From Escherichia coli (GTDB taxonomy: Bacteria; Pseudomonadota; Gammaproteobacteria; Enterobacterales; Enterobacteriaceae): a stretch of 64,000 nt of DNA. The notes below the pieces were generated by a model, which saw nothing but the letters and a program-made list of their open reading frames with translations, was not told the DNA's origin and ran no database searches. Below are positions 15,164 through 37,146 of the stretch, in pieces. How positions within the stretch are numbered: position 1 is the first letter of the stretch; every line of letters starts with the position of its first letter. The stretch is taken from the NCBI RefSeq assembly GCF_003334815.1, contig NZ_QOWO01000006.1; one strand, written 5' to 3'. The translations under genes and the position numbers were made by a program.

Positions 15164-15195
15164 AAAATAACAATAATATTTCGTTGTTTATTATT

Positions 15196-15223: not shown

Positions 15224-15288
15224 GCGCTACCTGCGCAACGAAGATACGACTTGTGCTGTTTGTTTGAACTTCTGGGGTCGTACCGTCC

Positions 15289-16332
15289 ATGCGCTATCGC
15301 ATTTTCCTTCTCTTTTTTTTCGCTTTGTTGCCGACGTCTTTGGTGTGGGCGGCACCAGCGCAACGGGCGTTTTCCGACTGGCAGGTCACCTGTAATAACC
15401 AAAATTTCTGCGTGGCGCGTAATACGGGCGATCATAATGGACTGGTGATGACCCTGAGCCGCAGCGCCGGGGCGCATACCGATGCCGTTTTACGTATTGA
15501 GCGCGGCGGATTGAAGTCGCCGGAGGCGTCAGAAGGGGAGATAGCGCCACGGCTGCTGTTAGATGGCGAGCCGTTGGCGTTAAGTGGTGACAAGTGGCGG
15601 ATTTCACCATGGTTATTAGTAACCGATGATACGGCAACCATCACCGCGTTTTTGCAGATGATTCAGGAAGGGAAGGCAATCACCTTACGCGATGGCGATC
15701 AGACCATTTCTCTGAGTGGCTTAAAAGCAGCGTTGTTGTTTATTGATGCTCAGCAAAAGCGCGTTGGCAGTGAAACCGCGTGGATCAAGAAAGGGGACGA
15801 ACCGCCGCTCAGCGTACCGCCCGCGCCTGCGCTGAAAGAGGTCGCGGTGGTTAACCCAACGCCGACGCCACTCTCACTCGAAGAACGCAACGATTTGCTG
15901 GATTATGGAAACTGGCGGATGAATGGTCTGCGCTGCTCGCTTGATCCATTGCGTCGTGAGGTGAATGTCACTGCGCTGACTGATGATAAAGCGCTGATGA
16001 TGATTAGCTGTGAGGCAGGGGCCTATAACACCATTGATTTGGCATGGATTGTGTCGCGTAAAAAGCCACTAGCTTCGCGCCCGGTTCGGTTGCGTTTGCC
16101 GTTCAACAACGGTCAGGAGACGAATGAACTGGAACTGATGAACGCAACATTTGATGAGAAATCGCGTGAACTGGTGACCTTAGCGAAAGGGCGCGGATTA
16201 AGCGATTGTGGCATTCAGGCGCGCTGGCGCTTTGACGGTCAGCGTTTTCGCCTGGTGCGTTACGCCGCAGAACCCACCTGCGATAACTGGCATGGGCCAG
16301 ACGCCTGGCCCACGTTGTGGATCACCCGTTAA
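15289..16332 (+). CDS. ypfG: Secreted protein of unknown function YpfG (DUF1176)
   Basis: 347-aa ORF with N-terminal signal peptide MRYRIFLLFFFALLPTSLVWA. Confidence 0.85.
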   Translation: MRYRIFLLFFFALLPTSLVWAAPAQRAFSDWQVTCNNQNFCVARNTGDHNGLVMTLSRSAGAHTDAVLRIERGGLKSPEASEGEIAPRLLLDGEPLALSGDKWRISPWLLVTDDTATITAFLQMIQEGKAITLRDGDQTISLSGLKAALLFIDAQQKRVGSETAWIKKGDEPPLSVPPAPALKEVAVVNPTPTPLSLEERNDLLDYGNWRMNGLRCSLDPLRREVNVTALTDDKALMMISCEAGAYNTIDLAWIVSRKKPLASRPVRLRLPFNNGQETNELELMNATFDEKSRELVTLAKGRGLSDCGIQARWRFDGQRFRLVRYAAEPTCDNWHGPDAWPTLWITR

Positions 16333-16347
16333 ACAAAATGGCGGGAC

Positions 16348-16423
16348 ATGTAGGCCGGATAAGACGCTGTAGGCCGGATAAGACGCGTCAGCGTCGCATC
16401 CGGCAATCAGCATCCGGCAATCA
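16348..16423. repeat. REP-like cluster between the convergent genes ypfG and tktB, with internal tandem duplications
   Basis: GTAGGCCGGATAAGACGC occurs twice in tandem, followed by two CATCCGGCAATCA copies. Confidence 0.8.
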
Positions 16424-16426
16424 CCA

Positions 16427-19688: not shown

Positions 19689-21968
19689 ATGGATGACCAG
19701 TTAAAACAAAGTGCACTTGATTTCCATGAATTTCCAGTTCCAGGGAAAATCCAGGTTTCTCCAACCAAGCCTCTGGCAACACAGCGCGATCTGGCGCTGG
19801 CCTACTCACCAGGCGTTGCCGCACCTTGTCTTGAAATCGAAAAAGACCCGTTAAAAGCCTACAAATATACCGCCCGCGGTAACCTGGTGGCGGTGATCTC
19901 TAACGGTACGGCGGTGCTGGGGTTAGGCAACATTGGCGCGCTGGCAGGCAAACCGGTGATGGAAGGCAAGGGCGTTCTGTTTAAGAAATTCGCCGGGATT
20001 GATGTATTTGACATTGAAGTTGACGAACTCGACCCGGACAAATTTATTGAAGTTGTCGCCGCGCTCGAACCAACCTTCGGCGGCATCAACCTCGAAGACA
20101 TTAAAGCGCCAGAATGTTTCTATATTGAACAGAAACTGCGCGAGCGGATGAATATTCCGGTATTCCACGACGATCAGCACGGCACGGCAATTATCAGCAC
20201 TGCCGCCATCCTCAACGGCTTGCGCGTGGTGGAGAAAAACATCTCCGACGTGCGGATGGTGGTTTCCGGCGCGGGTGCCGCAGCAATCGCCTGTATGAAC
20301 CTGCTGGTAGCGCTGGGTCTGCAAAAACATAACATCGTGGTTTGCGATTCAAAAGGCGTTATCTATCAGGGCCGTGAGCCAAACATGGCGGAAACCAAAG
20401 CCGCATATGCGGTGGTGGATGACGGCAAACGTACCCTCGATGATGTGATTGAAGGCGCGGATATTTTCCTGGGCTGTTCCGGCCCGAAAGTGCTGACCCA
20501 GGAAATGGTGAAGAAAATGGCTCGTGCGCCAATGATCCTGGCGCTGGCGAACCCGGAACCGGAAATTCTGCCGCCGCTGGCGAAAGAAGTGCGTCCGGAT
20601 GCCATCATTTGCACCGGTCGTTCTGACTATCCGAACCAGGTGAACAACGTCCTGTGCTTCCCGTTCATCTTCCGTGGCGCGCTGGACGTTGGCGCAACCG
20701 CCATCAACGAAGAGATGAAACTGGCGGCGGTACGTGCGATTGCAGAACTCGCCCATGCGGAACAGAGCGAAGTGGTGGCTTCAGCGTATGGCGATCAGGA
20801 TCTGAGCTTTGGTCCGGAATACATCATTCCAAAACCGTTTGATCCGCGCTTGATCGTTAAGATCGCTCCTGCGGTCGCTAAAGCCGCGATGGAGTCGGGC
20901 GTGGCGACTCGTCCGATTGCTGATTTCGACGTCTACATCGACAAGCTGACTGAGTTCGTTTACAAAACCAACCTGTTTATGAAGCCGATTTTCTCCCAGG
21001 CTCGCAAAGCGCCGAAGCGCGTTGTTCTGCCGGAAGGGGAAGAGGCGCGCGTTCTGCATGCCACTCAGGAACTGGTAACGCTGGGACTGGCGAAACCGAT
21101 CCTTATCGGTCGTCCGAACGTGATCGAAATGCGCATTCAGAAACTGGGCTTGCAGATCAAAGCGGGCGTTGATTTTGAGATCGTCAATAACGAATCCGAT
21201 CCGCGCTTTAAAGAGTACTGGACCGAATACTTCCAGATCATGAAGCGTCGCGGCGTCACTCAGGAACAGGCGCAGCGGGCGCTGATCAGTAACCCGACAG
21301 TGATCGGCGCGATCATGGTTCAGCGTGGGGAAGCCGATGCAATGATTTGCGGTACGGTGGGTGATTATCATGAACATTTTAGCGTGGTGAAAAATGTCTT
21401 TGGTTATCGCGATGGCGTTCACACCGCAGGTGCCATGAACGCGCTGCTGCTGCCGAGTGGTAACACCTTTATTGCCGATACATATGTTAATGATGAACCG
21501 GATGCAGAAGAGCTGGCGGAGATCACCTTGATGGCGGCAGAAACTGTCCGTCGTTTTGGTATTGAGCCGCGCGTTGCTTTGTTGTCGCACTCCAACTTTG
21601 GTTCTTCTGACTGCCCGTCGTCGAGCAAAATGCGTCAGGCGCTGGAACTGGTCAGGGAACGTGCACCAGAACTGATGATTGATGGTGAAATGCACGGCGA
21701 TGCAGCGCTGGTGGAAGCGATTCGCAACGACCGTATGCCGGACAGCTCTTTGAAAGGTTCCGCCAATATTCTGGTGATGCCGAACATGGAAGCTGCCCGC
21801 ATTAGTTACAACTTACTGCGTGTTTCCAGCTCGGAAGGTGTGACTGTCGGCCCGGTGCTGATGGGTGTGGCGAAACCGGTTCACGTGTTAACGCCGATCG
21901 CATCGGTGCGTCGTATCGTCAACATGGTGGCGCTGGCCGTGGTAGAAGCGCAAACCCAACCGCTGTAA
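19689..21968 (+). CDS. maeB: NADP-dependent malic enzyme (with C-terminal phosphotransacetylase-like domain)
   Basis: 759-aa [26 protein letters not shown]... Confidence 0.95.
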
Positions 21969-22260: not shown

Positions 22261-22596
22261 ATGGATAAAGAACGCATCATTCAGGAATTTGTGCCCGGCA
22301 AACAGGTCACACTGGCGCATCTCATCGCGCATCCCGGTGAGGAACTGGCGAAGAAAATCGGCGTTCCGGATGCGGGCGCAATTGGCATTATGACGCTAAC
22401 TCCCGGCGAAACGGCGATGATCGCCGGTGATTTAGCGCTGAAAGCCGCTGATGTGCATATCGGTTTTCTCGACCGATTCAGCGGTGCATTGGTGATTTAT
22501 GGCTCGGTGGGCGCAGTAGAAGAAGCGTTATCACAAACCGTCAGCGGTTTAGGTCGCTTATTAAATTATACGCTTTGTGAAATGACCAAAAGTTAA
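22261..22596 (+). CDS. eutS: Ethanolamine-utilisation microcompartment shell protein EutS
   Basis: ORF track 22189..22596; start trimmed to [18 protein letters not shown]... (111 aa); BMC domain. Confidence 0.9.
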
Positions 22597-22608
22597 TACG
22601 AGGCATTC

Positions 22609-23088
22609 ATGAAACGAATTGCGTTTGTGGGTAGCGTCGGGGCAGGAAAAACAACGTTATTTAATGCGTTGCAGGGGAATTATACCCTCGCCAGAAAAAC
22701 ACAGGCCGTGGAATTTAATGATAAGGGCGATATTGATACGCCGGGTGAATATTTTAACCATCCCCGCTGGTATCACGCCTTAATTACCACGCTACAGGAT
22801 GTAGACATGCTGATCTTTGTCCATGGCGCAAATGACCCGGAAAGTCGGTTGCCTGCCGGGTTGCTGGATATTGGCGTCAGCAAACGGCAAATCGCCGTCA
22901 TCAGTAAAACGGACATGCCAGATGCTGACGTCGCCGCAACGCGAAAGTTATTGCTTGAGACGGGCTTCGAAGAGCCGATTTTCGAGCTAAACAGCCACGA
23001 CCCGCAAAGCGTGCAGCAACTGGTGGATTATCTGGCATCTCTCACCAAACAGGAGGAAGCAGGTGAAAAAACTCATCACAGCGAATGA
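22609..23088 (+). CDS. eutP: EutP/PduV-family GTPase-like protein
   Basis: 159-aa ORF with P-loop GSVGAGKTTL. Confidence 0.9.
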   Translation: MKRIAFVGSVGAGKTTLFNALQGNYTLARKTQAVEFNDKGDIDTPGEYFNHPRWYHALITTLQDVDMLIFVHGANDPESRLPAGLLDIGVSKRQIAVISKTDMPDADVAATRKLLLETGFEEPIFELNSHDPQSVQQLVDYLASLTKQEEAGEKTHHSE

Positions 23089-23764
23089 TATTCGTGAAGC
23101 ACACGCGCGCGGCGAACAGGCAATGTCCGTGGTTCTGCGCGCCAGCATTATTACCCCGGAAGCCCGTGAAGTGGCGGATCTACTGGGTTTTACCATCACC
23201 GAATGTGATGAATCGATCCCGGTAACGGCGTCCGTGCCCGCCAGCGTGCCAGCCGACAAAACCGAAAGCCAGCGCATCCGCGAAACCATCATTGCCCAGC
23301 TGCCGGAAGGCCAGTTTACCGAAAGCCTGGTCGCACAGCTGATGGAAAAAGTGATGAAGGAAAAACAGTCGCTGGAGCAGGGCGCAATGCAGCCGAGCTT
23401 CAAATCGGTGACCGGCAAAGGCGGCATCAAAGTGATTGATGGCAGTAGCGTCAAGTTTGGTCGTTTCGACGGCGCAGAGCCGCATTGCGTGGGCTTGACT
23501 GATCTTGTGACCGGAGACGACGGCAGCAGCATGGCCGCCGGTTTTATGCAGTGGGAGAACGCATTCTTCCCGTGGACCCTGAACTACGACGAAATCGACA
23601 TGGTGCTGGAAGGGGAGCTGCATGTTCGCCACGAAGGCCAAACCATGATCGCCAAAGCAGGCGACGTGATGTTTATCCCGAAAGGCTCCAGCATCGAATT
23701 TGGTACGACATCCAGCGTGAAATTCCTGTATGTCGCCTGGCCGGCTAACTGGCAATCCCTATGA
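23063..23764 (+). CDS. eutQ: EutQ cupin-domain protein (acetate kinase activity reported)
   Basis: 233-aa ORF; 26-nt overlap with eutP. Confidence 0.9.
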   Translation: MKKLITANDIREAHARGEQAMSVVLRASIITPEAREVADLLGFTITECDESIPVTASVPASVPADKTESQRIRETIIAQLPEGQFTESLVAQLMEKVMKEKQSLEQGAMQPSFKSVTGKGGIKVIDGSSVKFGRFDGAEPHCVGLTDLVTGDDGSSMAAGFMQWENAFFPWTLNYDEIDMVLEGELHVRHEGQTMIAKAGDVMFIPKGSSIEFGTTSSVKFLYVAWPANWQSL

Positions 23765-24564
23765 AAGATTTCATCACCGAAGCATGGCTAAGAGCGAACC
23801 ATACGCTCAGCGAAGGCGCAGAGATCCATCTCCCTGCGGACAGTCGCCTGACGCCCTCTGCCCGGGAGTTGCTGGAAAGCCGCCATCTGCGCATCAAGTT
23901 TATTGACGAGCAGGGCCGCCTGTTTGTTGACGATGAACAGCAGCAGCCGCAGCCCGTTCATGGGCTGACCAGTAGCGATGAACATCCGCAGGCGTGCTGC
24001 GAACTGTGTCGCCAGCCGGTGGCAAAAAAGCCGGATACGCTGACTCACCTGTCGGCGGAAAAAATGGTCGCCAAAAGCGATCCGCGTCTGGGTTTTCGCG
24101 CGGTTCTCGACAGCACCATTGCGCTGGCAGTGTGGCTGCAAATTGAACTGGCGGAACCGTGGCAGCCGTGGCTGGCGGATATCCGTTCGCGTCTTGGCAA
24201 CATTATGCGCGCCGATGCGCTGGGGGAACCGCTGGGCTGCCAGGCGATTGTCGGGCTTTCTGACGAAGATCTGCATCGGCTTTCTCATCAGCCGCTGCGC
24301 TATCTCGACCACGATCATCTGGTGCCGGAAGCCAGCCACGGGCGCGATGCTGCGTTGCTCAATCTGCTACGCACCAAAGTGCGGGAAACCGAAACCGTAG
24401 CGGCGCAGGTCTTTATCACCCGCAGCTTTGAAGTATTACGCCCGGACATTTTGCAGGCGCTGAACCGCCTTTCGAGCACGGTCTACGTGATGATGATCCT
24501 GAGCGTAACGAAGCAGCCGCTAACGGTGAAGCAGATCCAACAACGACTGGGGGAAACGCAATGA
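23761..24564 (+). CDS. eutT: Ethanolamine-utilisation corrinoid adenosyltransferase
   Basis: 267-aa ORF; ATGA start/stop overlap with eutQ. Confidence 0.9.
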
Positions 24565-25577
24565 TTATTGAACGTTGTCGTGAACTGGCGTTGCGAGCGC
24601 CCGCCAGAGTGGTTTTTCCGGATGCGTTAGACCAACGTGTGCTGAAAGCCGCGCAATATTTACATCAACAAGGTCTGGCAACGCCCATTCTGGTCGCCAA
24701 TCCGTTTGAACTTCGTCAGTTTGCGCTCAGTCACGGCGTGGCGATGGACGGGCTACAGGTGATTGATCCGCATGGCAACCTCGCAATGCGGGAAGAATTT
24801 GCTCATCGCTGGCTGGCCCGCGCGGGCGAAAAAACGCCGCCGGATGCGCTGGAAAAACTTACCGACCCTCTGATGTTCGCCGCAGCAATGGTCAGCGCCG
24901 GTAAAGCGGATGTCTGTATCGCGGGCAACCTCTCTTCCACGGCAAATGTGCTGCGTGCCGGATTACGCATTATCGGCTTGCAGCCAGGCTGTAAAACGCT
25001 CTCTTCCATTTTCCTGATGTTGCCACAGTACAGCGGCCCGGCGTTGGGCTTTGCCGATTGCAGCGTGGTGCCACAGCCGACGGCGGCGCAGCTGGCGGAT
25101 ATCGCGCTTGCCAGTGCCGAAACCTGGCGCGCCATCACCGGAGAAGAGCCGCGCGTGGCGATGCTGTCGTTTTCCAGCAATGGTAGCGCCCGTCACCCCT
25201 GTGTTGCTAACGTCCAGCAGGCGACAGAAATCGTCCGTGAGCGCGCACCAAAGCTGGTGGTGGATGGCGAGTTACAGTTTGACGCCGCCTTCGTGCCGGA
25301 AGTGGCGGCGCAAAAAGCGCCTGCCAGCCCGCTACAGGGCAAGGCCAATGTGATGGTTTTTCCGTCGCTGGAAGCCGGAAATATTGGTTACAAAATCGCA
25401 CAACGACTCGGCGGATATCGTGCCGTCGGGCCACTGATACAAGGACTTGCCGCGCCGATGCACGATCTCTCTCGTGGTTGTAGCGTGCAGGAAATTATCG
25501 AGCTGGCGCTGGTGGCAGCTGTGCCGCGTCAGACAGAAGTGAACCGCGAAAGCAGTTTACAAACACTGGTTGAATGA
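24561..25577 (+). CDS. eutD: Phosphotransacetylase of the eut operon
   Basis: 338-aa ORF; ATGA overlap with eutT. Confidence 0.9.
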
Positions 25578-25615
25578 ACGGTCCCGTTCTGGACCCTGAT
25601 AAAGAGGAAAGCACA

Positions 25616-25909
25616 ATGGAAGCATTAGGAATGATCGAAACCCGGGGCCTGGTTGCACTGATTGAGGCTTCTGACGCGATGGTGAAAGCTGCGCGCGTCA
25701 AGCTGGTTGGTGTTAAGCAGATTGGCGGCGGCCTGTGTACTGCCATGGTTCGTGGTGATGTTGCAGCCTGTAAAGCCGCGACCGATGCAGGTGCCGCAGC
25801 GGCACAGCGTATCGGCGAGCTGGTATCTGTACACGTTATCCCGCGTCCGCACGGCGACCTGGAAGAAGTCTTCCCGATCGGCCTGAAAGGCGATAGCAGC
25901 AACCTGTAA
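25616..25909 (+). CDS. eutM: BMC-H shell protein EutM
   Basis: ORF track 25574..25909; start trimmed to [22 protein letters not shown]... (97 aa) behind AAAGAGGAAA. Confidence 0.9.
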
Positions 25910-25918
25910 TCACCCTGT

Positions 25919-25960
25919 GTGACGTCGATTCGGGCGTCACGCTCTCTCCTTTTTCATTTT
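25919..25960 (+). other. Stem-loop followed by a U-rich tract between eutM and eutN
   Basis: GTGACG-(10 nt)-CGTCAC, then CTCTCTCCTTTTTCATTTT. Confidence 0.4.
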
Positions 25961-26015
25961 ACCTTCTGCGGAGGGTAGGGGGAGCTTTTACCTGAAATAC
26001 GCCACGGAGGCGGGT

Positions 26016-26303
26016 ATGAAACTGGCAGTCGTCACTGGACAAATTGTTTGTACCGTACGCCATCACGGACTGGCGCATGACAAATTGCTGATGGTGGAAA
26101 TGATTGATCCACAAGGTAATCCTGACGGGCAATGCGCCGTCGCCATCGACAATATTGGCGCGGGAACCGGGGAGTGGGTGTTACTGGTGAGTGGCAGTTC
26201 CGCCCGCCAGGCGCATAAAAGCGAAACGTCACCGGTCGATCTGTGCGTGATTGGCATTGTCGATGAGGTGGTGTCTGGCGGTCAGGTAATTTTCCACAAA
26301 TAA
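26016..26303 (+). CDS. eutN: BMC vertex (pentamer) protein EutN
   Basis: 95-aa ORF MKLAVVTGQIVCTVRH... Confidence 0.9.
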   Translation: MKLAVVTGQIVCTVRHHGLAHDKLLMVEMIDPQGNPDGQCAVAIDNIGAGTGEWVLLVSGSSARQAHKSETSPVDLCVIGIVDEVVSGGQVIFHK

Positions 26304-26314
26304 GGCAGAACATC

Positions 26315-27718
26315 ATGAATCAACAGGATATTGAACAGGTGGTGAAAGCGGTACTGCTGAAAATGCAAAGCAGTGACACGCCGTCCGCCGCCGTTCATGA
26401 GATGGGCGTTTTCGCGTCCCTGGATGACGCCGTTGCGGCAGCCAAAGTCGCCCAGCAAGGGTTAAAAAGCGTGGCAATGCGCCAGTTAGCCATTGCTGCC
26501 ATTCGTGAAGCAGGCGAAAAACACGCCAGAGATTTAGCGGAACTTGCCGTCAGTGAAACCGGCATGGGGCGCGTTGAAGATAAATTTGCAAAAAACGTCG
26601 CTCAGGCGCGCGGCACACCAGGCGTTGAGTGCCTCTCTCCGCAAGTGCTGACTGGCGACAACGGCCTGACCCTAATTGAAAACGCACCCTGGGGCGTGGT
26701 GGCTTCGGTGACGCCTTCCACTAACCCGGCGGCAACCGTAATTAACAACGCCATCAGCCTGATTGCCGCGGGCAACAGCGTCATTTTTGCCCCGCATCCG
26801 GCGGCGAAAAAAGTCTCCCAGCGGGCGATTACGCTGCTCAACCAGGCGATTGTTGCCGCAGGTGGGCCGGAAAACTTACTGGTTACTGTGGCAAATCCGG
26901 ATATCGAAACCGCGCAACGCTTGTTCAAGTTTCCGGGTATCGGCCTGCTGGTGGTAACCGGCGGCGAAGCGGTAGTAGAAGCGGCGCGTAAACACACCAA
27001 TAAACGTCTGATTGCCGCAGGCGCTGGCAACCCGCCGGTAGTGGTGGATGAAACCGCCGACCTCGCCCGTGCCGCTCAGTCCATCGTCAAAGGCGCTTCT
27101 TTCGATAACAACATCATTTGTGCCGACGAAAAGGTACTGATTGTTGTTGATAGCGTAGCCGATGAACTGATGCGTCTGATGGAAGGCCAGCACGCGGTGA
27201 AACTGACCGCAGAACAGGCGCAGCAGCTGCAACCGGTGTTGCTGAAAAATATCGACGAGCGCGGAAAAGGCACCGTCAGCCGTGACTGGGTTGGTCGCGA
27301 CGCAGGCAAAATCGCGGCGGCAATCGGCCTTAAAGTTCCGCAAGAAACGCGCCTGCTGTTTGTGGAAACCACCGCAGAACATCCGTTTGCCGTGACTGAA
27401 CTGATGATGCCGGTGTTGCCCGTCGTGCGCGTCGCCAACGTGGCGGATGCCATTGCGCTAGCGGTGAAACTGGAAGGCGGTTGCCACCACACGGCGGCAA
27501 TGCACTCGCGCAACATCGAAAACATGAACCAGATGGCGAATGCTATTGATACCAGCATTTTCGTTAAGAACGGACCGTGCATTGCCGGGCTGGGGCTGGG
27601 CGGGGAAGGCTGGACCACCATGACCATCACCACGCCAACCGGTGAAGGGGTAACCAGCGCGCGTACGTTTGTCCGTCTGCGTCGCTGTGTATTAGTCGAT
27701 GCGTTTCGCATTGTTTAA
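26315..27718 (+). CDS. eutE: CoA-acylating acetaldehyde dehydrogenase
   Basis: 467-aa ORF, aldehyde dehydrogenase family. Confidence 0.92.
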   Translation: MNQQDIEQVVKAVLLKMQSSDTPSAAVHEMGVFASLDDAVAAAKVAQQGLKSVAMRQLAIAAIREAGEKHARDLAELAVSETGMGRVEDKFAKNVAQARGTPGVECLSPQVLTGDNGLTLIENAPWGVVASVTPSTNPAATVINNAISLIAAGNSVIFAPHPAAKKVSQRAITLLNQAIVAAGGPENLLVTVANPDIETAQRLFKFPGIGLLVVTGGEAVVEAARKHTNKRLIAAGAGNPPVVVDETADLARAAQSIVKGASFDNNIICADEKVLIVVDSVADELMRLMEGQHAVKLTAEQAQQLQPVLLKNIDERGKGTVSRDWVGRDAGKIAAAIGLKVPQETRLLFVETTAEHPFAVTELMMPVLPVVRVANVADAIALAVKLEGGCHHTAAMHSRNIENMNQMANAIDTSIFVKNGPCIAGLGLGGEGWTTMTITTPTGEGVTSARTFVRLRRCVLVDAFRIV

Positions 27719-27728
27719 GGAGTAACAG

Positions 27729-28565
27729 ATGGCGCACGACGAACAATGGCTCACCCCACGTCTGCAAACGGCGGCAACGCTGTGTAACCAGACGCCCGCC
27801 GCGACGGAATCTCCGCTGTGGCTGGGGGTGGATCTGGGCACCTGCGATGTGGTGTCGATGGTTGTCGACCGCGACGGTCAGCCAGTGGCGGTATGCCTCG
27901 ACTGGGCCGATGTGGTTCGCGACGGCATCGTCTGGGATTTCTTCGGCGCTGTCACCATTGTTCGTCGCCATCTCGACACGCTCGAGCAGCAATTCGGTCG
28001 TCGTTTTAGCCATGCGGCGACTTCATTTCCTCCAGGTACGGACCCGCGTATTTCCATCAACGTGCTGGAATCTGCCGGACTGGAAGTGAGCCATGTGCTG
28101 GATGAGCCAACCGCAGTTGCGGATCTGCTGCAACTGGACAACGCCGGTGTAGTGGATATCGGCGGCGGCACTACCGGCATTGCCATCGTGAAAAAGGGCA
28201 AGGTGACGTACTCGGCGGATGAAGCCACCGGCGGACATCACATCTCTCTGACTCTCGCCGGAAATCGCCGTATTTCGCTGGAAGAGGCGGAGCAGTACAA
28301 GCGCGGTCACGGTGAAGAGATTTGGCCTGCGGTGAAACCGGTGTACGAAAAAATGGCGGACATTGTCGCCCGGCATATTGAAGGGCAGGGCATTACTGAT
28401 TTATGGCTGGCGGGCGGCTCTTGTATGCAACCGGGCGTGGCGGAACTGTTTCGCAAACAATTCCCGGCGTTACAGGTGCATTTACCGCAGCACAGTTTGT
28501 TTATGACCCCGCTGGCGATCGCCAGTAGTGGGCGAGAGAAAGCGGAGGGGCTATATGCAAAATGA
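27729..28565 (+). CDS. eutJ: EutJ chaperone-like protein (actin/Hsp70 fold)
   Basis: 278-aa ORF. Confidence 0.9.
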   Translation: MAHDEQWLTPRLQTAATLCNQTPAATESPLWLGVDLGTCDVVSMVVDRDGQPVAVCLDWADVVRDGIVWDFFGAVTIVRRHLDTLEQQFGRRFSHAATSFPPGTDPRISINVLESAGLEVSHVLDEPTAVADLLQLDNAGVVDIGGGTTGIAIVKKGKVTYSADEATGGHHISLTLAGNRRISLEEAEQYKRGHGEEIWPAVKPVYEKMADIVARHIEGQGITDLWLAGGSCMQPGVAELFRKQFPALQVHLPQHSLFMTPLAIASSGREKAEGLYAK

Positions 28566-29742
28566 ATTGCAGACCGCGCTCTTTCAGGCGTTCGATACCC
28601 TGAATCTGCAACGGGTAAAAACATTTAGCGTTCCACCGGTGACGCTTTGCGGTCCGGGCTCGGTGAGCAGTTGCGGACAGCAAGCGCAAACGCGTGGGCT
28701 GAAACATCTGTTCGTGATGGCAGACAGCTTTTTGCATCAGGCAGGGATGACCGCCGGGCTGACGCGTAGCCTGACCGTTAAAGGTATCGCCATGACGCTC
28801 TGGCCATGTCCGGTGGGCGAACCGTGCATTACCGACGTGTGTGCAGCCGTGGCGCAGTTGCGTGAGTCAGGCTGTGATGGGGTGATCGCGTTTGGCGGCG
28901 GCTCGGTGCTGGATGCGGCGAAAGCCGTGACGTTGCTGGTGACGAACCCGGATAGCACGCTGGCAGAGATGTCAGAAACCAGCGTTCTGCAACCGCGCTT
29001 GCCGCTGATTGCCATTCCAACTACCGCAGGAACCGGCTCTGAAACCACCAATGTAACGGTGATTATCGACGCGGTGAGCGGGCGCAAGCAGGTGTTAGCC
29101 CATGCCTCGCTGATGCCGGATGTGGCGATCCTCGACGCCGCATTGACCGAAGGTGTGCCGTCGCATGTCACGGCGATGACCGGCATTGATGCGTTAACCC
29201 ATGCCATTGAAGCATACAGCGCCCTGAACGCTACACCGTTTACCGACAGTCTGGCGATTGGTGCCATTGCGATGATTGGCAAATCGCTGCCGAAAGCGGT
29301 GGGCTACGGTCACGACCTTGCCGCGCGCGAGAGCATGTTGCTGGCTTCATGTATGGCGGGAATGGCGTTTTCCAGTGCGGGTCTTGGGTTGTGCCACGCG
29401 ATGGCGCATCAGCCGGGCGCGGCGCTGCATATTCCGCACGGTCTCGCGAACGCCATGTTGCTGCCAACGGTGATGGAATTTAACCGGATGGTTTGTCGTG
29501 AACGCTTTAGTCAGATTGGTCGGGCACTGCGAACTAAAAAATCCGACGATCGTGACGCTATTAACGCGGTAAGTGAGCTGATTGCGGAAGTTGGGATTGG
29601 TAAACGACTGGGCGATGTTGGTGCGACATCTGCGCATTACGGCGCATGGGCGCAGGCCGCGCTGGAAGATATTTGTCTGCGCAGTAACCCGCGTACCGCC
29701 AGCCTGGAGCAGATTGTCGGCCTGTACGCAGCGGCGCAATAA
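28555..29742 (+). CDS. eutG: Iron-containing alcohol dehydrogenase EutG
   Basis: ORF track 28528..29742; start trimmed to MQNELQTALFQAFD... (395 aa); overlaps the eutJ stop by 11 nt. Confidence 0.9.
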   Translation: MQNELQTALFQAFDTLNLQRVKTFSVPPVTLCGPGSVSSCGQQAQTRGLKHLFVMADSFLHQAGMTAGLTRSLTVKGIAMTLWPCPVGEPCITDVCAAVAQLRESGCDGVIAFGGGSVLDAAKAVTLLVTNPDSTLAEMSETSVLQPRLPLIAIPTTAGTGSETTNVTVIIDAVSGRKQVLAHASLMPDVAILDAALTEGVPSHVTAMTGIDALTHAIEAYSALNATPFTDSLAIGAIAMIGKSLPKAVGYGHDLAARESMLLASCMAGMAFSSAGLGLCHAMAHQPGAALHIPHGLANAMLLPTVMEFNRMVCRERFSQIGRALRTKKSDDRDAINAVSELIAEVGIGKRLGDVGATSAHYGAWAQAALEDICLRSNPRTASLEQIVGLYAAAQ

Positions 29743-29744
29743 AT

Positions 29745-29930
<186 letters not shown>

Positions 29931-29958
29931 AAATAACAACTAACAGGGAGTAAAGGCG

Positions 29959-31185
29959 ATGGGAATTAACGAAATCATCATGTACATCATGATGTTCTTT
30001 ATGCTGATAGCTGCCGTAGACAGGATCCTGTCGCAGTTCGGCGGTTCTGCTCGTTTCCTCGGTAAGTTCGGTAAAAGTATCGAAGGATCAGGCGGTCAGT
30101 TCGAAGAAGGCTTTATGGCAATGGGCGCACTGGGCCTGGCGATGGTCGGTATGACCGCGCTGGCACCGGTACTGGCTCACGTTCTCGGGCCGGTAATTAT
30201 TCCGGTTTACGAAATGCTCGGCGCTAACCCATCGATGTTCGCCGGAACACTGCTGGCGTGCGATATGGGCGGCTTCTTCCTCGCCAAAGAGCTGGCGGGC
30301 GGCGACGTAGCCGCGTGGCTATACTCTGGGTTAATTCTCGGGTCGATGATGGGGCCAACGATTGTGTTTTCCATTCCGGTGGCGCTCGGCATTATCGAAC
30401 CTTCTGACCGTCGTTATCTGGCGCTCGGCGTGCTGGCGGGCATTGTGACCATTCCGATTGGTTGTATCGCTGGTGGTCTGGTTGCTATGTACTCCGGTGT
30501 GCAGATCAACGGCCAGCCGGTGGAATTCACTTTCGCCCTGATCCTGATGAACATGATCCCGGTGATCATTGTTGCGATTCTGGTGGCGCTGGGGCTGAAA
30601 TTCATCCCGGAAAAAATGATCAACGGCTTCCAGATCTTCGCCAAATTCCTCGTTGCATTGATCACCCTCGGTCTTGCCGCTGCGGTAGTGAAATTCCTGC
30701 TTGGCTGGGAACTGATCCCCGGTCTGGATCCTATCTTTATGGCCCCTGGCGATAAACCCGGTGAGGTGATGCGCGCCATTGAAGTTATCGGTTCTATCTC
30801 CTGCGTTCTGTTAGGGGCGTATCCGATGGTGCTGCTGCTGACTCGCTGGTTTGAAAAACCGCTGATGAGCGTCGGTAAAGTACTGAATATGAACAACATC
30901 GCGGCAGCCGGCATGGTGGCAACGCTTGCCAACAACATCCCGATGTTCGGCATGATGAAGCAGATGGATACCCGCGGCAAAGTCATCAACTGCGCCTTCG
31001 CCGTTTCCGCTGCTTTCGCCCTGGGCGACCACTTAGGCTTCGCCGCTGCCAACATGAACGCCATGATCTTCCCGATGATTGTCGGCAAGTTGATCGGCGG
31101 CGTAACGGCGATTGGCGTGGCGATGATGCTGGTGCCAAAAGAAGACGCGACCGCGACTAAAACCGAAGCGGAGGCACAATCGTGA
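29959..31185 (+). CDS. eutH: Ethanolamine permease EutH
   Basis: 408-aa polytopic membrane ORF. Confidence 0.92.
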   Translation: MGINEIIMYIMMFFMLIAAVDRILSQFGGSARFLGKFGKSIEGSGGQFEEGFMAMGALGLAMVGMTALAPVLAHVLGPVIIPVYEMLGANPSMFAGTLLACDMGGFFLAKELAGGDVAAWLYSGLILGSMMGPTIVFSIPVALGIIEPSDRRYLALGVLAGIVTIPIGCIAGGLVAMYSGVQINGQPVEFTFALILMNMIPVIIVAILVALGLKFIPEKMINGFQIFAKFLVALITLGLAAAVVKFLLGWELIPGLDPIFMAPGDKPGEVMRAIEVIGSISCVLLGAYPMVLLLTRWFEKPLMSVGKVLNMNNIAAAGMVATLANNIPMFGMMKQMDTRGKVINCAFAVSAAFALGDHLGFAAANMNAMIFPMIVGKLIGGVTAIGVAMMLVPKEDATATKTEAEAQS

Positions 31186-32585
31186 ACACTCGCCAGCTAT
31201 TGAGCGTCGGTATCGATATCGGCACCACCACCACCCAGGTGATTTTCTCCCGGCTGGAGCTGGTTAACCGTGCGGCGGTGTCGCAGGTGCCGCGCTACGA
31301 ATTCATTAAACGCGAAATTAGCTGGCAAAGTCCGGTGTTCTTTACCCCTGTCGATAAACAGGGCGGTTTAAAAGAAGCGGAACTGAAAACCTTAATACTC
31401 GAGCAATATCATGCTGCGGGTATTGAGCCGGAAAGCGTTGATTCTGGTGCCATCATCATCACCGGTGAAAGCGCGAAAACCCGCAATGCTCGCCCGGCGG
31501 TGATGGCGCTCTCTCAGTCGCTGGGCGATTTTGTCGTTGCCAGCGCCGGGCCGCACCTCGAATCCGTGATCGCCGGTCACGGAGCCGGGGCACAAACCCT
31601 TTCTGAACAACGGCTGTGTCGGGTACTGAATATCGACATCGGCGGTGGCACCGCGAACTACGCCCTGTTCGATGCCGGAAAAATCAGCGGCACTGCCTGC
31701 CTCAACGTCGGTGGTCGCCTGCTGGAAACCGACAGCCACGGGCGCGTGGTTTACGCTCATAAACCGGGGCAGATGATTGTGGATGAGTGCTTCGGTGCAG
31801 GCACCGACGCCCGTTCGCTGACCGGCGCGCAGCTGGTGCAGGTGACCCGGCGGATGGCAGAACTGATTGTCGAAGTGATTGACGGAACGCTCTCACCGCT
31901 CGCGCAGGCATTGATGCAAACCGGTTTGCTGCCCGCAGGTGTTACGCCCGAAATCATTACGCTTTCTGGCGGCGTGGGCGAATGTTATCGCCACCAGCCC
32001 GCCGACCCGTTCTGTTTTGCCGATATTGGCCCGCTGCTGGCAACTGCGCTGCATGACCATCCGCGCCTGCGTGAGATGAACGTACAGTTTCCGGCGCAAA
32101 CCGTGCGCGCCACGGTGATTGGCGCGGGCGCGCATACCCTTTCGCTCTCTGGCAGCACAATCTGGCTTGAGGGCGTACAACTGCCGCTGCGCAATTTGCC
32201 GGTGGCGATCCCGATTGATGAAACGGATCTGGTGGGGGCCTGGCAACAGGCGCTGATTCAGCTGGATCTTGATCCCAAAACTGACGCGTACGTGCTGGCG
32301 CTTCCCGCCTCGCTGCCTGTGCGTTACGCCGCGGTACTGACGGTCATCAACGCGTTGGTCGATTTCGTCGCGCGTTTTCCGAATCCGCATCCCCTGCTGG
32401 TGGTGGCCGGGCAGGACTTTGGTAAAGCTCTGGGCATGTTGTTGCGCCCACAGCTACAACAACTCCCGTTGGCAGTCATTGACGAAGTGATTGTCCGCGC
32501 GGGGGACTATATCGACATTGGTACGCCTCTTTTTGGCGGATCGGTTGTGCCGGTGACGGTGAAATCACTCGCATTTCCTTCCTGA
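31182..32585 (+). CDS. eutA: Ethanolamine ammonia-lyase reactivating factor
   Basis: 467-aa ORF; ATGA overlap with eutH. Confidence 0.92.
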   Translation: MNTRQLLSVGIDIGTTTTQVIFSRLELVNRAAVSQVPRYEFIKREISWQSPVFFTPVDKQGGLKEAELKTLILEQYHAAGIEPESVDSGAIIITGESAKTRNARPAVMALSQSLGDFVVASAGPHLESVIAGHGAGAQTLSEQRLCRVLNIDIGGGTANYALFDAGKISGTACLNVGGRLLETDSHGRVVYAHKPGQMIVDECFGAGTDARSLTGAQLVQVTRRMAELIVEVIDGTLSPLAQALMQTGLLPAGVTPEIITLSGGVGECYRHQPADPFCFADIGPLLATALHDHPRLREMNVQFPAQTVRATVIGAGAHTLSLSGSTIWLEGVQLPLRNLPVAIPIDETDLVGAWQQALIQLDLDPKTDAYVLALPASLPVRYAAVLTVINALVDFVARFPNPHPLLVVAGQDFGKALGMLLRPQLQQLPLAVIDEVIVRAGDYIDIGTPLFGGSVVPVTVKSLAFPS

Positions 32586-32596
32586 GGGAACGACTT

Positions 32597-33958
32597 ATGA
32601 AACTAAAGACCACATTGTTCGGCAATGTATATCAGTTTAAGGATGTAAAAGAGGTGCTGGCTAAAGCCAACGAACTGCGTTCGGGGGATGTGCTGGCGGG
32701 CGTCGCAGCGGCAAGCTCACAGGAGCGCGTGGCGGCAAAGCAGGTGTTGTCGGAAATGACCGTAGCGGACATCCGCAATAATCCGGTGATTGCCTATGAA
32801 GATGACTGCGTGACGCGGCTGATTCAGGACGATGTTAACGAAACGGCCTACAACCAGATTAAAAACTGGAGCATCAGCGAACTGCGTGAGTATGTGCTGA
32901 GCGATGAAACCAGCGTGGACGACATTGCCTTTACCCGCAAAGGGCTGACCTCGGAAGTGGTCGCGGCGGTAGCGAAGATTTGCTCCAACGCGGACCTGAT
33001 CTACGGCGCGAAGAAAATGCCGGTAATCAAAAAGGCCAATACCACCATCGGTATTCCGGGCACCTTTAGCGCCCGTTTGCAGCCAAATGACACCCGTGAC
33101 GACGTGCAAAGTATCGCCGCGCAAATCTACGAAGGGCTTTCCTTCGGGGTGGGCGATGCGGTGATCGGCGTTAACCCGGTGACTGACGACGTGGAAAACT
33201 TAAGCCGCGTGTTGGATACCATCTATGGCGTGATCGACAAATTCAACATCCCAACTCAGGGCTGTGTACTGGCGCACGTCACCACCCAGATCGAAGCGAT
33301 CCGTCGTGGCGCACCGGGCGGGCTGATTTTCCAGAGTATCTGTGGCAGCGAAAAAGGGCTGAAAGAGTTTGGCGTGGAGCTGGCGATGCTCGACGAAGCG
33401 CGCGCAGTGGGCGCGGAGTTCAACCGTATCGCCGGGGAAAACTGCCTCTACTTCGAAACCGGACAAGGCTCTGCGCTATCCGCTGGCGCTAACTTCGGCG
33501 CAGACCAGGTAACGATGGAAGCACGTAACTACGGGCTGGCGCGTCATTACGATCCGTTTATCGTCAACACCGTGGTCGGCTTTATTGGGCCGGAGTATCT
33601 CTACAACGACCGCCAGATTATCCGTGCTGGCTTAGAAGATCACTTTATGGGCAAGCTGAGCGGCATCTCTATGGGCTGTGACTGCTGTTATACCAACCAC
33701 GCTGACGCTGACCAGAACCTCAACGAAAACCTGATGATCCTGCTCGCCACCGCAGGCTGCAACTACATCATGGGGATGCCGCTGGGTGATGACATCATGC
33801 TCAACTACCAGACCACCGCATTCCACGATACCGCCACTGTGCGTCAGTTACTCAACCTGCGCCCGTCACCGGAGTTTGAACGCTGGCTGGAAAGCATGGG
33901 CATTATGGCAAACGGTCGCCTGACCAAACGGGCGGGCGATCCGTCACTGTTCTTCTGA
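32597..33958 (+). CDS. eutB: Ethanolamine ammonia-lyase large subunit
   Basis: 453-aa ORF; starts 11 bp after the eutA stop. Confidence 0.95.
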   Translation: MKLKTTLFGNVYQFKDVKEVLAKANELRSGDVLAGVAAASSQERVAAKQVLSEMTVADIRNNPVIAYEDDCVTRLIQDDVNETAYNQIKNWSISELREYVLSDETSVDDIAFTRKGLTSEVVAAVAKICSNADLIYGAKKMPVIKKANTTIGIPGTFSARLQPNDTRDDVQSIAAQIYEGLSFGVGDAVIGVNPVTDDVENLSRVLDTIYGVIDKFNIPTQGCVLAHVTTQIEAIRRGAPGGLIFQSICGSEKGLKEFGVELAMLDEARAVGAEFNRIAGENCLYFETGQGSALSAGANFGADQVTMEARNYGLARHYDPFIVNTVVGFIGPEYLYNDRQIIRAGLEDHFMGKLSGISMGCDCCYTNHADADQNLNENLMILLATAGCNYIMGMPLGDDIMLNYQTTAFHDTATVRQLLNLRPSPEFERWLESMGIMANGRLTKRAGDPSLFF

Positions 33959-33978
33959 TGACGCGGAGATAACATATC

Positions 33979-34866
33979 ATGGATCAAAAACAGATTGAAG
34001 AAATTGTACGCAGCGTGATGGCGTCAATGGGACAAGCGGCCCCCGCGCCGTCAGAAGCAAAGTGCGCCACCACCAACTGTGCGGCACCGGTGACCTCGGA
34101 AAGCTGTGCGCTGGATTTAGGTTCCGCTGAAGCAAAAGCGTGGATTGGTGTTGAAAATCCGCATCGCGCAGACGTATTAACAGAACTGCGCCGCAGCACC
34201 GTGGCCCGCGTTTGTACCGGTCGTGCCGGTCCGCGTCCACGTACGCAGGCGCTGCTGCGTTTCCTGGCCGATCACTCTCGTTCGAAAGATACCGTACTGA
34301 AAGAAGTGCCGGAAGAGTGGGTGAAAGCGCAGGGCTTGCTGGAAGTACGCTCTGAAATTAGCGACAAAAATCTCTACCTGACTCGCCCGGATATGGGCCG
34401 CCGCCTGTGTGCAGAAGCTGTTGAAGCGCTGAAAGCGCAGTGTGTTGCCAATCCGGACGTACAGGTCGTTATTTCTGATGGCCTGTCAACTGATGCGATC
34501 ACCGTGAACTACGAAGAGATCCTGCCACCGCTGATGGCGGGCCTGAAACAGGCCGGGCTGAAAGTCGGTACACCATTCTTTGTTCGTTATGGTCGCGTGA
34601 AGATTGAAGATCAGATCGGTGAGATCCTCGGCGCGAAAGTAGTGATCCTGCTGGTGGGCGAACGTCCGGGGTTGGGTCAGTCAGAAAGCCTCTCCTGCTA
34701 CGCCGTTTACTCGCCGCGTATGGCGACCACCGTTGAGGCCGATCGCACCTGTATCTCTAACATTCACCAGGGCGGCACGCCGCCGGTTGAAGCCGCAGCC
34801 GTCATTGTGGATTTGGCGAAACGTATGCTGGAGCAGAAAGCATCCGGCATCAACATGACCCGATAA
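33979..34866 (+). CDS. eutC: Ethanolamine ammonia-lyase small subunit
   Basis: 295-aa ORF. Confidence 0.95.
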
Positions 34867-34875
34867 GGAGGCATC

Positions 34876-35535
34876 ATGCCAGCTTTAGATTTGATTCGAC
34901 CGTCTGTCACCGCTATGCGGGTGATTGCCTCCGTTAACGCCGATTTTGCGCGTGAACTGAAATTGCCGCCGCATATTCGTAGCCTCGGTCTGATTTCTGC
35001 CGACTCCGATGACGTCACCTACATTGCCGCTGATGAAGCGACCAAGCAGGCGATGGTGGAAGTGGTGTATGGCCGCTCGCTATATGCGGGCGCTGCACAC
35101 GGCCCGTCACCGACTGCCGGTGAAGTGCTGATTATGCTTGGTGGGCCAAACCCGGCGGAAGTGCGTGCAGGTCTGGATGCGATGATTGCGCATATTGAAA
35201 ATGGCGCAGCTTTCCAGTGGGCTAATGACGCGCAAGATACGGCATTCCTGGCACATGTAGTTTCGCGTACCGGTTCTTATCTCTCATCAACCGCCGGGAT
35301 CACGCTTGGCGATCCGATGGCGTATCTGGTGGCACCGCCGCTGGAAGCGACCTATGGCATTGATGCAGCCCTGAAGTCTGCCGACGTACAGCTGGCGACC
35401 TATGTCCCGCCACCGTCTGAAACCAACTACTCGGCAGCATTTTTAACCGGTAGCCAGGCAGCGTGTAAAGCAGCCTGTAACGCCTTTACCGATGCAGTGC
35501 TGGAAATCGCGCGTAATCCAATCCAGCGTGCGTAA
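34876..35535 (+). CDS. eutL: BMC-T (tandem-domain) shell protein EutL
   Basis: 219-aa ORF. Confidence 0.92.
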
Positions 35536-35547
35536 CGGAGGTTGCCG

Positions 35548-36048
35548 ATGATCAATGCACTGGGATTGCTGGAAGTGGACGGCATGGTCGCCGCGATAGA
35601 TGCAGCGGATGCCATGCTCAAAGCAGCTAACGTTCGTCTGCTCAGTCACGAAGTGCTTGACCCTGGTCGCTTAACGCTGGTGGTGGAAGGCGATCTGGCG
35701 GCGTGTCGTGCGGCGCTGGACGCAGGTTGTGCTGCCGCGATGCGTACCGGGCGTGTCATCAGCCGCAAGGAGATCGGTCGGCCAGACGATGACACCCAGT
35801 GGCTGGTTACTGGCTTTAACCGCCAGCCGAAGCAACCCGTAAGGGAACCCGACGCGCCAGTTATCGTCGCGGAATCTGCTGACGAGTTGTTGGCGCTGTT
35901 AACATCAGTACGTCAGGGAATGACGGCAGGAGAAGTGGCTGCCCACTTTGGCTGGCCGCTGGAAAAAGCCAGAAATGCGCTCGAACAGCTCTTTTCTGCC
36001 GGGACGTTACGTAAACGCAGTAGTCGTTATCGTCTCAAGCCCCATTAA
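35548..36048 (+). CDS. eutK: BMC shell protein EutK (BMC domain plus C-terminal helix-turn-helix)
   Basis: ORF track 35542..36048 opens at a TTG; trimmed to ATG 35548 (MINALGLLEVDGMVAAIDA..., 166 aa). Confidence 0.88.
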   Translation: MINALGLLEVDGMVAAIDAADAMLKAANVRLLSHEVLDPGRLTLVVEGDLAACRAALDAGCAAAMRTGRVISRKEIGRPDDDTQWLVTGFNRQPKQPVREPDAPVIVAESADELLALLTSVRQGMTAGEVAAHFGWPLEKARNALEQLFSAGTLRKRSSRYRLKPH

Positions 36049-36060
36049 CCTGTCGGAGGT

Positions 36061-36084
36061 GCCGGGTGTCCTACAACACCCGGC
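36061..36084 (+). other. Stable stem-loop just upstream of the eutR ribosome-binding site
   Basis: GCCGGGTGT-CCTACA-ACACCCGGC (9-bp perfect stem); no U-tract. Confidence 0.4.
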
Positions 36085-36093
36085 ATTAACATC

Positions 36094-37146
36094 ATGAAAA
36101 AGACCCGTACAGCCAATTTGCACCATCTTTATCATGAACCCTTACCCGAAAACCTGAAGCTCACGCCGAAGGTCGAAGTGGATAATGTTCATCAACGACA
36201 GACAACGGATGTCTATGAACATGCTTTAACGATTACCGCCTGGCAGCAGATTTACGATCAGCTGCATCCGGGCAAGTTTCATGGTGAATTTACGGAAATT
36301 CTACTCGATGATATTCAGGTTTTTCGTGAATACACCGGTCTGGCGCTGCGTCAGTCGTGCCTGGTCTGGCCGAACTCGTTCTGGTTTGGCATTCCGGCGA
36401 CGCGCGGTGAGCAGGGATTTATCGGTTCGCAATGTCTGGGAAGCGCGGAAATCGCCACCCGCCCTGGTGGCACTGAATTTGAACTGAGCACGCCGGATGA
36501 TTACACGATCCTGGGCGTGGTGCTTTCTGAAGATGTCATCACCCGGCAGGCTAACTTTTTGCATAACCCGGATCGGGTATTACATATGTTGCGTAACCAG
36601 TCGGCGCTGGAAGTGAAAGAGCAGCATAAAGCCGCGCTGTGGGGCTTTGTCCAACAGGCGCTGGCGACGTTTTGCGAGAATCCGGAAAATCTCCATCAGC
36701 CTGCAGTGCGAAAAGTGCTGGGGGATAATTTGCTAATGGCGATGGGGGCCATGCTGGAAGAAGCGCAACCAATGGTGACGGCGGAAAGCATCAGTCATCA
36801 GAGTTACCGTCGATTGCTTTCCCGCGCCCGTGAATATGTGCTGGAAAACATGTCCGAACCGGTGACGGTGCTGGATTTGTGTAATCAACTGCATGTCAGC
36901 CGCCGCACGCTACAAAACGCGTTTCACGCTATTTTAGGCATTGGCCCGAACGCGTGGCTGAAACGCATTCGCCTGAACGCCGTACGCCGCGAACTGATAA
37001 GTCCGTGGTCGCAAAGTATGACGGTAAAAGACGCCGCCATGCAGTGGGGATTCTGGCATCTGGGGCAATTTGCCACGGATTACCAGCAGCTGTTTTCCGA
37101 GAAGCCGTCACTGACGCTGCATCAGCGGATGCGGGAGTGGGGGTGA
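36094..37146 (+). CDS. eutR: AraC-family transcriptional activator of the eut operon
   Basis: 350-aa ORF; last gene of the operon. Confidence 0.92.

Follow-up and report, generated by a model that had tools for sequence, protein, structure and literature searches.

An uninterrupted eutA-eutB junction with an unoccupied CPZ-55 attachment core in an Escherichia coli strain close to K-12

Results

The window, by which we mean the whole 64-kb stretch of Escherichia coli DNA that we analysed, carries the eut operon at positions 22261..37146 on the plus strand, with 17 genes in the order eutSPQTDMNEJGHABCLKR. Gene names were taken from the RefSeq annotation of the collinear MG1655 and 52F4 records, and the shell proteins (eutS/M/N/L/K) and EutR were assigned through their identity to annotated K-12 proteins rather than by a separate profile search. 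All 17 genes lie in uninterrupted order on one strand, each with a start codon, a terminal stop and no internal stop, and the spacers between them range from -26 to +216 bp; the 17 contiguous, full-length genes of the original prediction are thus present, with every reading frame intact. In a gene-by-gene comparison, 15 of the 17 Eut proteins were identical to those of MG1655; EutP differed only by Y70F and M124I, and eutG carried one synonymous SNP.

This is the arrangement of the EUT1 locus of Salmonella enterica LT2 and most E. coli (Nissle 1917, UPEC, O157:H7), which has 17 genes in the same order with eutR last and in which the genes for the signature enzyme EutBC adjoin the gene for the EutA reactivase; the published eut organization of Salmonella and Nissle likewise matches the window (PMC7617246; PMC11334477). 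We found no difference of substance between the window and the EUT1 locus, the two EutP substitutions relative to K-12 being conservative.

At the center of the operon, eutA (31182..32585, plus strand; GTG start, 467 amino acids) was identified from the open reading frame (ORF) list and NCBIfam model NF007991 as the gene for the reactivating factor of ethanolamine ammonia-lyase, with a full-length match of 1068.7 bits against a cut-off of 799. According to the ORF list, its start overlaps the stop of eutH by 4 nt; the transporter-like EutH scored 873.6 bits against its NCBIfam equivalog model (cut-off, 574). On the other side, eutB (32597..33958, plus strand; ATG start, 453 amino acids) encodes the large (alpha) subunit of ethanolamine ammonia-lyase, as judged from the ORF list and NF011649 (664.7 bits; cut-off, 554), and the adjacent eutC (33979..34866, plus strand; 295 amino acids) encodes the small (beta) subunit (NF003971, 339.6 bits; cut-off, 230). 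Both subunits are identical to the K-12 proteins, and the eutA and eutB DNA is 100% identical to that of K-12. The genes for EutH and EutA thus stand directly upstream of eutB.

Only 11 bp, GGGAACGACTT, separate eutA from eutB (32586..32596, plus strand, read from the sequence). The Shine-Dalgarno core of eutB, GAGG at 32584-32587, shares bases with the TGA stop of eutA, and 9 nt separate its end from the eutB ATG; such overlap of a stop codon with a ribosome-binding site (RBS) is characteristic of genes that are closely linked and perhaps coupled in translation. The ORF list and the sequence therefore confirmed the predicted end of eutA at 32585, start of eutB at 32597 and 11-bp spacer bearing the eutB RBS. 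No terminator-like hairpin was found on the plus strand in or adjoining the spacer, and consensus scans for promoters and terminators across the operon gave counts close to chance (20 terminator-like sites versus 16.7 expected), with nothing at the junction, and are uninformative. The junction itself is structural rather than statistical evidence, and a test against chance has no bearing on it. The sole RNA matches in an Rfam scan were the REP-derived naRNA4 and ES036, which are unrelated to the junction.

In MG1655 and in the K-12-like record JME64, by comparison, alignment showed a block of ~6.8 kb (intZ, yffL to yffS) between eutA and eutB, which bears out the prediction that the K-12 operon is split at this point by CPZ-55. 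The flanking DNA of K-12 strains MG1655 and BW25113 is near-identical to the window, eutA and eutB are identical, and the same 8-bp core is present, but K-12 has two copies of the core around the ~6.8-kb insert where the window has one copy and no insert. The cargo of K-12 CPZ-55 comprises intZ and yffL to yffS, including the small-terminase-like yffO, all transcribed in the direction opposite to eut. IntZ matched phage integrase families (phrog_1, E = 1.2e-67), and a PHROGs scan of the CPZ-55 proteins recognized only this integrase and the small-terminase-like YffO, so that CPZ-55 may be either a phage remnant or a satellite.

The breakpoints of homology with K-12 define the core. When the window was aligned with K-12, the left-hand homology ended at window position 32585 and the right-hand homology started at 32578, so the 8 bp CTTCCTGA flank the K-12 insert on both sides. 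In the window this unoccupied attachment core (32578..32585, plus strand) is present as a single copy that contains the eutA TGA stop. Its reverse complement, 5'-TCAGGAAG-3', is the 8-bp duplication reported in the literature, where the insertion is placed immediately behind the eutA stop codon (PMC6379469). The 8-bp sequence is not rare, with 2 occurrences per strand in the 64 kb versus ~1 expected per strand; the 27-bp site around it, GCATTTCCTTCCTGAGGGAACGACTTA, occurs once in the window. A tRNA scan found no tRNA, showing that the eutA-eutB site is not an attachment site of the tRNA type. Searches of the whole 64-kb window with CPZ-55 DNA (blastn) and for an IntZ-like protein (tblastn) gave no matches, and the junction, which has the same sequence as in natural isolates, shows neither an FRT scar nor any other mark of engineering. 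As had been claimed, the CPZ-55 site is empty: the core is present in one scar-free copy, and the 64 kb contain neither CPZ-55 nor IntZ sequence.

We then examined the state of the site across the species with a 300-bp junction probe. The junction was uninterrupted in 4,962 of 5,426 complete E. coli genomes (~91%), at 96-100% identity and including O157:H7, O127:H6, O111 and W strains; in 4,681 records the best match to the probe reached at least 99% identity. Full-length CPZ-55 was found in 213 genomes, and all the carriers sampled were laboratory K-12 derivatives or had K-12-sized genomes. From the E. coli-wide frequency and the published structure of the Salmonella operon, we concluded that the uninterrupted arrangement, which is the majority state, is almost certainly ancestral, in agreement with the original prediction, and its caution that the operon is not a novel system was equally sound. 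One record, EA2, gave a 336-bp match to the 300-bp probe, which we considered as a possible excision footprint and rejected, the extra length being a tandem duplication of 36 bp that lies in frame within eutB, off the attachment site.

The empty site had also been taken as the sign of a non-K-12 lineage. Here the conclusion survived but the reasoning did not. Three records, C600 (CP167195), "K-12 MG1655" CP010441 and TUM22765, have a scarless empty junction identical to that of the window while carrying the K-12 alleles at all 12 test SNPs, so that alignment with some K-12 records shows no insertion at all, an outcome that the original prediction had itself named as refuting. AG100 also lacks the CPZ-55 prophage and has an odd 90-bp tandem duplication at the eutA-eutB junction. 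Published accounts describe K-12 RV308 (PMC4239343) and a laboratory stock of W3110 (PMC11334477) as prophage free. What separates the window from K-12 is its sequence: against MG1655, the 64 kb show 12 SNPs and an indel of 1 bp, the latter at a position outside the sequence compared for C600, CP010441 and TUM22765. The 12 SNPs are the same against four K-12-genotype records (MG1655, C600, CP010441 and TUM22765). The best-matching record, the wild calf isolate 52F4, is collinear with the window over the 64 kb without gaps, has an empty site and differs at 6 of 64,000 positions; it shares 8 of the 12 non-K-12 SNP alleles of the window as well as its indel state. Thus, the 12 SNPs and one indel relative to K-12, most of them common to a wild calf isolate, place the window outside K-12. 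Of two features of the K-12 lineage, sequence identity to the K-12 references and the presence of CPZ-55, the window has neither. The second is not truly defining for K-12, several substrains of which lack the prophage.

These data bear directly on the possibility that the window belongs to a K-12 derivative from which CPZ-55 has been lost, whether through spontaneous precise excision or through scarless engineering, which would make the empty site derived rather than ancestral. Such an origin would explain why eutA and eutB match K-12 perfectly, and it has precedents in the K-12-genotype records with exactly this scarless junction, in RV308 and the W3110 stock, and in the excision of CPZ-55, which is detectable but rare at <1 per 100,000 cells (PMC3105296). 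However, C600, CP010441 and TUM22765 agree with MG1655 at every one of the SNPs that set the window apart, and there is no FRT or other scar of engineering. The alleles and indel state shared with the independent wild isolate 52F4 are therefore genuine polymorphisms of the lineage, as opposed to sequencing noise or mutations acquired in the laboratory. On the strength of the SNPs against four K-12-genotype records, the indel and the alleles in common with 52F4, we rejected a K-12 derivative minus its prophage, an origin that we regard as very improbable.

The same comparisons weigh against an assembly artefact, in which the prophage would really be present but have been collapsed out of the assembly. 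Nothing specific suggests this, although the tandem duplication in AG100 shows that some records may be imperfect at this position. The junction is base for base that of thousands of independent complete genomes (the 4,681 records described above), the 64 kb are gaplessly collinear with an independent assembly (52F4), and CPZ-55 is unique sequence that offers no repeat for assemblers to collapse. We give this explanation virtually no credence.

CPZ-55 is not the only element found at the site. The two wild strains that we examined, 20AR0300 and 3359, have elements of 11.2 kb and 10.3 kb, respectively, flanked by the core CTTCCTGA. Both are IntZ-type elements with ends homologous to those of CPZ-55 and with other cargo: one encodes an HNH endonuclease together with HTH proteins, and the other carries IS1 plus genes resembling gadC and murI. 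None of this cargo is present in the window. In these strains and in UPEC U71, IntZ-type elements occupy the eutA/eutB core that stands empty in the window. The eutA-eutB site is an insertion hot spot, and has been drawn as a "prophage insertion hot spot" (PMC6652756). Because three independent elements share the same junctions and homologous ends, and because low-frequency excision of CPZ-55 has been published, the core at the end of eutA is probably recombined by the IntZ recombinase.

The existence of such elements in wild strains raises the question of whether the window's own non-K-12 lineage once had an IntZ-type element here and lost it by precise excision, leaving the site secondarily empty. 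An element sits on the core in both wild strains examined, excision by tyrosine recombinases is scarless, and the K-12 stocks show that such loss occurs. On the other hand, parsimony favors a site that was empty throughout, since ~91% of genomes are empty, including the closest relatives found (52F4 and other wild top matches). We therefore consider secondary loss improbable, and the site appears never to have been occupied rather than to have been vacated by precise excision. The scarless junction is compatible with either history, and neither would leave a sequence trace in the window.

Discussion

Taken together, these results make us confident that the window holds an ordinary uninterrupted eutA-eutB junction within a 17-gene eut operon, in a wild-type, phylogroup-A-like E. 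coli that is very close to K-12 but not K-12 and in which the core used by IntZ elements is unoccupied. None of the data contradicted this explanation. We call the host phylogroup-A-like from its near-identity to K-12. We propose that CTTCCTGA at the end of eutA serves as a chromosomal attachment core for small integrative elements with an IntZ-type tyrosine recombinase and that CPZ-55 of K-12 is one member of this family.

Since nothing lies between eutA and eutB, the entire operon could be read as one transcript from a promoter upstream of eutS. In published work on other strains, ethanolamine use needs an uninterrupted operon and insertion stops eutB induction, and results on induction, microcompartments and growth are available for strains whose operon is uninterrupted like that of the window (PMC11334477, PMC7617246). 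In BW25113, ethanolamine induces eutS and eutR but not eutB, and microcompartments are absent (PMC7617246); K-12 in the prophage state does not grow on ethanolamine, and scarless removal of the prophage reverses the published defects (PMC7617246, PMC11334477). For the K-12 background, the literature in effect already contains the suggested growth test on ethanolamine (PMC11334477). The source strain of the window is likely to grow on ethanolamine with B12; unlike MG1655 or BW25113, it should be capable of full eut expression and of ethanolamine use with B12.

The value of the junction as a strain marker is weaker than was claimed, and in both directions, given the prophage-free K-12 strains on one side and the IntZ-type elements in 2 of 2 wild strains examined on the other. 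K-12 substrains that lack CPZ-55 (C600, CP010441 and TUM22765) resemble the window at the junction and differ from it at 12 SNPs. Because K-12 substrains are polymorphic and other lineages have related elements at the same site, the presence or absence of CPZ-55 alone is unfit for distinguishing K-12 from non-K-12 strains.

Earlier publications cover the site, its duplication and the effect on function, so the observation is already known and carries little weight beyond annotation. Ethanolamine use has been tied to E. coli fitness in the gut and urinary tract (PMC6652756). One speculative extension gives the core at the eutA stop and eutB leader a role beyond that of a landing pad: IntZ-type elements could switch ethanolamine catabolism reversibly on and off, as in "active lysogeny," with the window representing the "on" state. 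Insertion would spare both coding sequences and the eutB RBS but block read-through transcription, scarless excision would restore the operon, and switching would have left its traces in the scarless losses that arose repeatedly and independently among K-12 stocks. We think this unlikely: regulated or selected switching is speculation, although insertion and scarless loss do both occur.

Structure of the eutA-eutB junction

The empty eutA-eutB site of the window is a correct, ordinary and already known feature. Gene-by-gene comparison with annotated MG1655 placed all 17 eut genes (eutSPQTDMNEJGHABCLKR) at 22261..37146, with every reading frame intact and with spacers that are short or overlapping. 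In the ORF list, eutA (31182..32585, plus strand, GTG start, 467 aa) and eutB (32597..33958, plus strand, ATG start, 453 aa) are separated by the 11-mer GGGAACGACTT, and the eutB Shine-Dalgarno core GAGG (32584-32587) overlaps the eutA TGA stop codon and leaves a gap of 9 nt to the eutB ATG. Such an overlap of stop codon and Shine-Dalgarno sequence (here 32583-32587) is the usual layout of tightly linked operon genes. EutH, EutA, EutB and EutC scored far over the curated cut-offs of their NCBIfam models. The ORF list, the NCBIfam scores and the comparison with MG1655 confirmed the junction and the complete 17-gene operon as originally predicted. Fifteen of the 17 eut proteins are identical in the window and K-12; EutP differs by Y70F and M124I, and eutG carries one synonymous change.

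With no insert, RNA polymerase arriving from upstream of eutS would be able to cross the whole operon, and the sequence suggests that the operon is functional in the window strain. When BW25113 was supplied with ethanolamine and B12, eutS and eutR were induced, eutB was not, and microcompartments were absent (PMC7617246); with ethanolamine as the nitrogen source, BW25113 behaved like a Δeut strain.

CPZ-55 is inserted at an 8-bp core

MG1655 (CP032667) and JME64, whose record matches K-12 in gene content and size, carry a ~6.8-kb block between eutA and eutB that contains intZ, yffL, yffM, yffN, yffO, yffP, yffQ, yffR and yffS, with every gene on the opposite strand. Base by base, the left arm of K-12/window homology ends at 32585 and the right arm reaches back to 32578. 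The arms overlap at 32578-32585, and thus the 8-bp core CTTCCTGA lies on both sides of the insert in K-12 and in a single copy at the window junction. Ramisetty and Sudhakari (2019) placed the insertion directly after the eutA stop, with the 8-bp duplication 5'-TCAGGAAG-3' (PMC6379469); this is the reverse complement of our core, and the insertion sites agree. The core contains the eutA stop codon, which is kept at the left junction after insertion, and the complete eutB leader and ribosome-binding site are kept at the right junction. CPZ-55 insertion interrupts transcriptional continuity and no coding sequence.

IntZ matches phage integrase families, and YffO (14358-14774, minus strand, of the K-12 CPZ-55 locus) matches the phage small-terminase family phrog_1482 (E = 5.5e-13); of the nine proteins of CPZ-55, seven had no PHROG family match. 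An integrase and a putative small terminase within 6.8 kb recall a phage satellite more than a complete prophage in decay.

The uninterrupted junction is the normal state

Of 5,426 complete E. coli genomes, 4,965 match at least 80% of the 2,777-bp query at a single location. A 300-bp probe with the junction at its centre shows 4,962 to be uninterrupted (96 to 100% identity), including O157:H7, O111, O127:H6, O78 and strain W. In 213 genomes CPZ-55 is present at full length (coverage of at least 80%), and the carriers sampled were all laboratory K-12 derivatives or K-12-sized genomes. By this up-to-date census, itself a small addition, the site is empty in about 91.4% of genomes, 3.9% carry CPZ-55, and another intZ-like integrase is matched in roughly 4%. 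We concluded from these frequencies that the uninterrupted junction is the normal and, by parsimony, the ancestral state. Secondary loss of an element in the window's own lineage, whose excision would leave no trace, is the unparsimonious reading, and an assembly artefact is very unlikely, since the junction is a base-perfect match to thousands of independent genomes.

The empty site does not identify a non-K-12 strain

The original prediction took the empty site as a sign of a non-K-12 lineage. That argument fails on its own, because C600 (locus L007, CP167195), CP010441 (L008; a 4.607-Mb record named K-12 MG1655) and TUM22765 (L009; labelled “laboratory developed”) have the scarless junction exactly as in the window (locus 20143-20161 in each), and all three carry the K-12 allele at all 12 SNPs between the window and MG1655. 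K-12 stocks are therefore polymorphic for CPZ-55, and the explicit demonstration that the empty site does not separate K-12 from non-K-12 is a second small addition. CPZ-55 is also missing from RV308 according to published work (PMC4239343), the eut operon is intact in the W3110 stock that Jallet et al. used (PMC11334477), and Wang et al. detected CPZ-55 excision in <1 per 100,000 cells (PMC3105296).

The K-12 substrain AG100 (NZ_LN832404.1) also lacks CPZ-55 and has the K-12 allele at the sole test SNP in range. It carries a perfect 90-bp tandem duplication (locus 4330-4505; window 32511-32596) that covers the 3'-terminal 75 nt of eutA together with the stop codon and the eutB leader and is annotated by RefSeq as a 24-aa “EutA” fragment; this could be a footprint of imprecise excision or repair, or an assembly artefact. 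EA2 (NZ_CP069710.1) has an in-frame 36-bp tandem duplication near the eutB 5' end (locus 519-554; window 32654-32689), which adds 12 residues and bears no relation to the attachment site.

The non-K-12 conclusion was nevertheless right, on different grounds. Across the 64 kb, 12 SNPs and one 1-bp indel separate the window from MG1655, and on the SNP evidence we reject a K-12 derivative that has lost the prophage. The wild calf isolate 52F4 has an empty site and is perfectly collinear with the window; the two differ at only six positions, and 52F4 shares eight of the 12 non-K-12 SNP alleles as well as the indel state. Furthermore, for both 25-kb flanks many wild isolates score higher than K-12. 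Taken together, these sequence comparisons show that the window belongs to a natural strain that falls in one narrow cluster with K-12 without being K-12 itself.

Other IntZ-type elements use the same site

A further ~200 genomes have an intZ-like integrase at 80 to 90% identity, the remaining DNA being different. Position was checked in two of these strains, 20AR0300 and 3359, and in both the element lies between eutA and eutB (11.2 kb, locus 5496-16755, and 10.3 kb, locus 7082-17395, respectively). In at least one other of the ~200, H153, the integrase match is annotated beside eutR, and an O157 match may sit away from the eutA/eutB site. The 20AR0300 and 3359 elements have the core CTTCCTGA in common with CPZ-55, and their ends are homologous to those of CPZ-55, a third small addition. 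The shared core, the homologous ends and the phage-integrase matches of IntZ indicate that IntZ-type elements form a family that integrates site-specifically here, and that CPZ-55 in K-12 is no isolated case. In the work of Dadswell et al. (2019), who found a novel prophage at this position in a UPEC isolate, the site is already marked as a “prophage insertion hot spot” (PMC6652756). Earlier work has described every element: the operon and how it is interrupted in K-12, the 8-bp duplication, the hot spot, and the phenotype together with its reversal. We consider it improbable that IntZ-type elements serve to switch ethanolamine catabolism reversibly.

The cargo of both elements is unusual: an HNH endonuclease, HTH proteins and hypothetical proteins, including one of 726 aa, in 20AR0300, and an IS1 element, a gadC-like antiporter gene, a murI-like (glutamate racemase) gene and a decarboxylase pseudogene in 3359. 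The 20AR0300 genome has eutR annotated as frameshifted.

Minor features of the window

Three of the 12 SNPs relative to K-12 fall within 164 bp of eutP (22817, 22965 and 22980), two of them non-synonymous (Y70F and M124I), a small patch of raised divergence that may be a recombination tract. The 216-bp eutG-eutH spacer, inside the operon, contains an Rfam match to the REP-element-derived RNA naRNA4 (29797-29878, plus strand, 71.8 bits), which resembles a REP/BIME element lying in the eut transcript; a second, stronger copy lies at 5010-5086 (92.7 bits). The strongest terminator-like hairpin of the operon (25917-25942, plus strand; 10-bp stem with six G-C pairs and a T-rich tail) lies in the 106-bp eutM-eutN spacer, right after the major shell gene eutM, and could serve as an internal attenuator, or could stabilise the mRNA and so set the stoichiometry of the shell proteins. 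An Rfam match to the ES036 (CssrF) sRNA at 52665-52707 (minus strand) scored 40.9 bits, slightly over the gathering score of 37.6.
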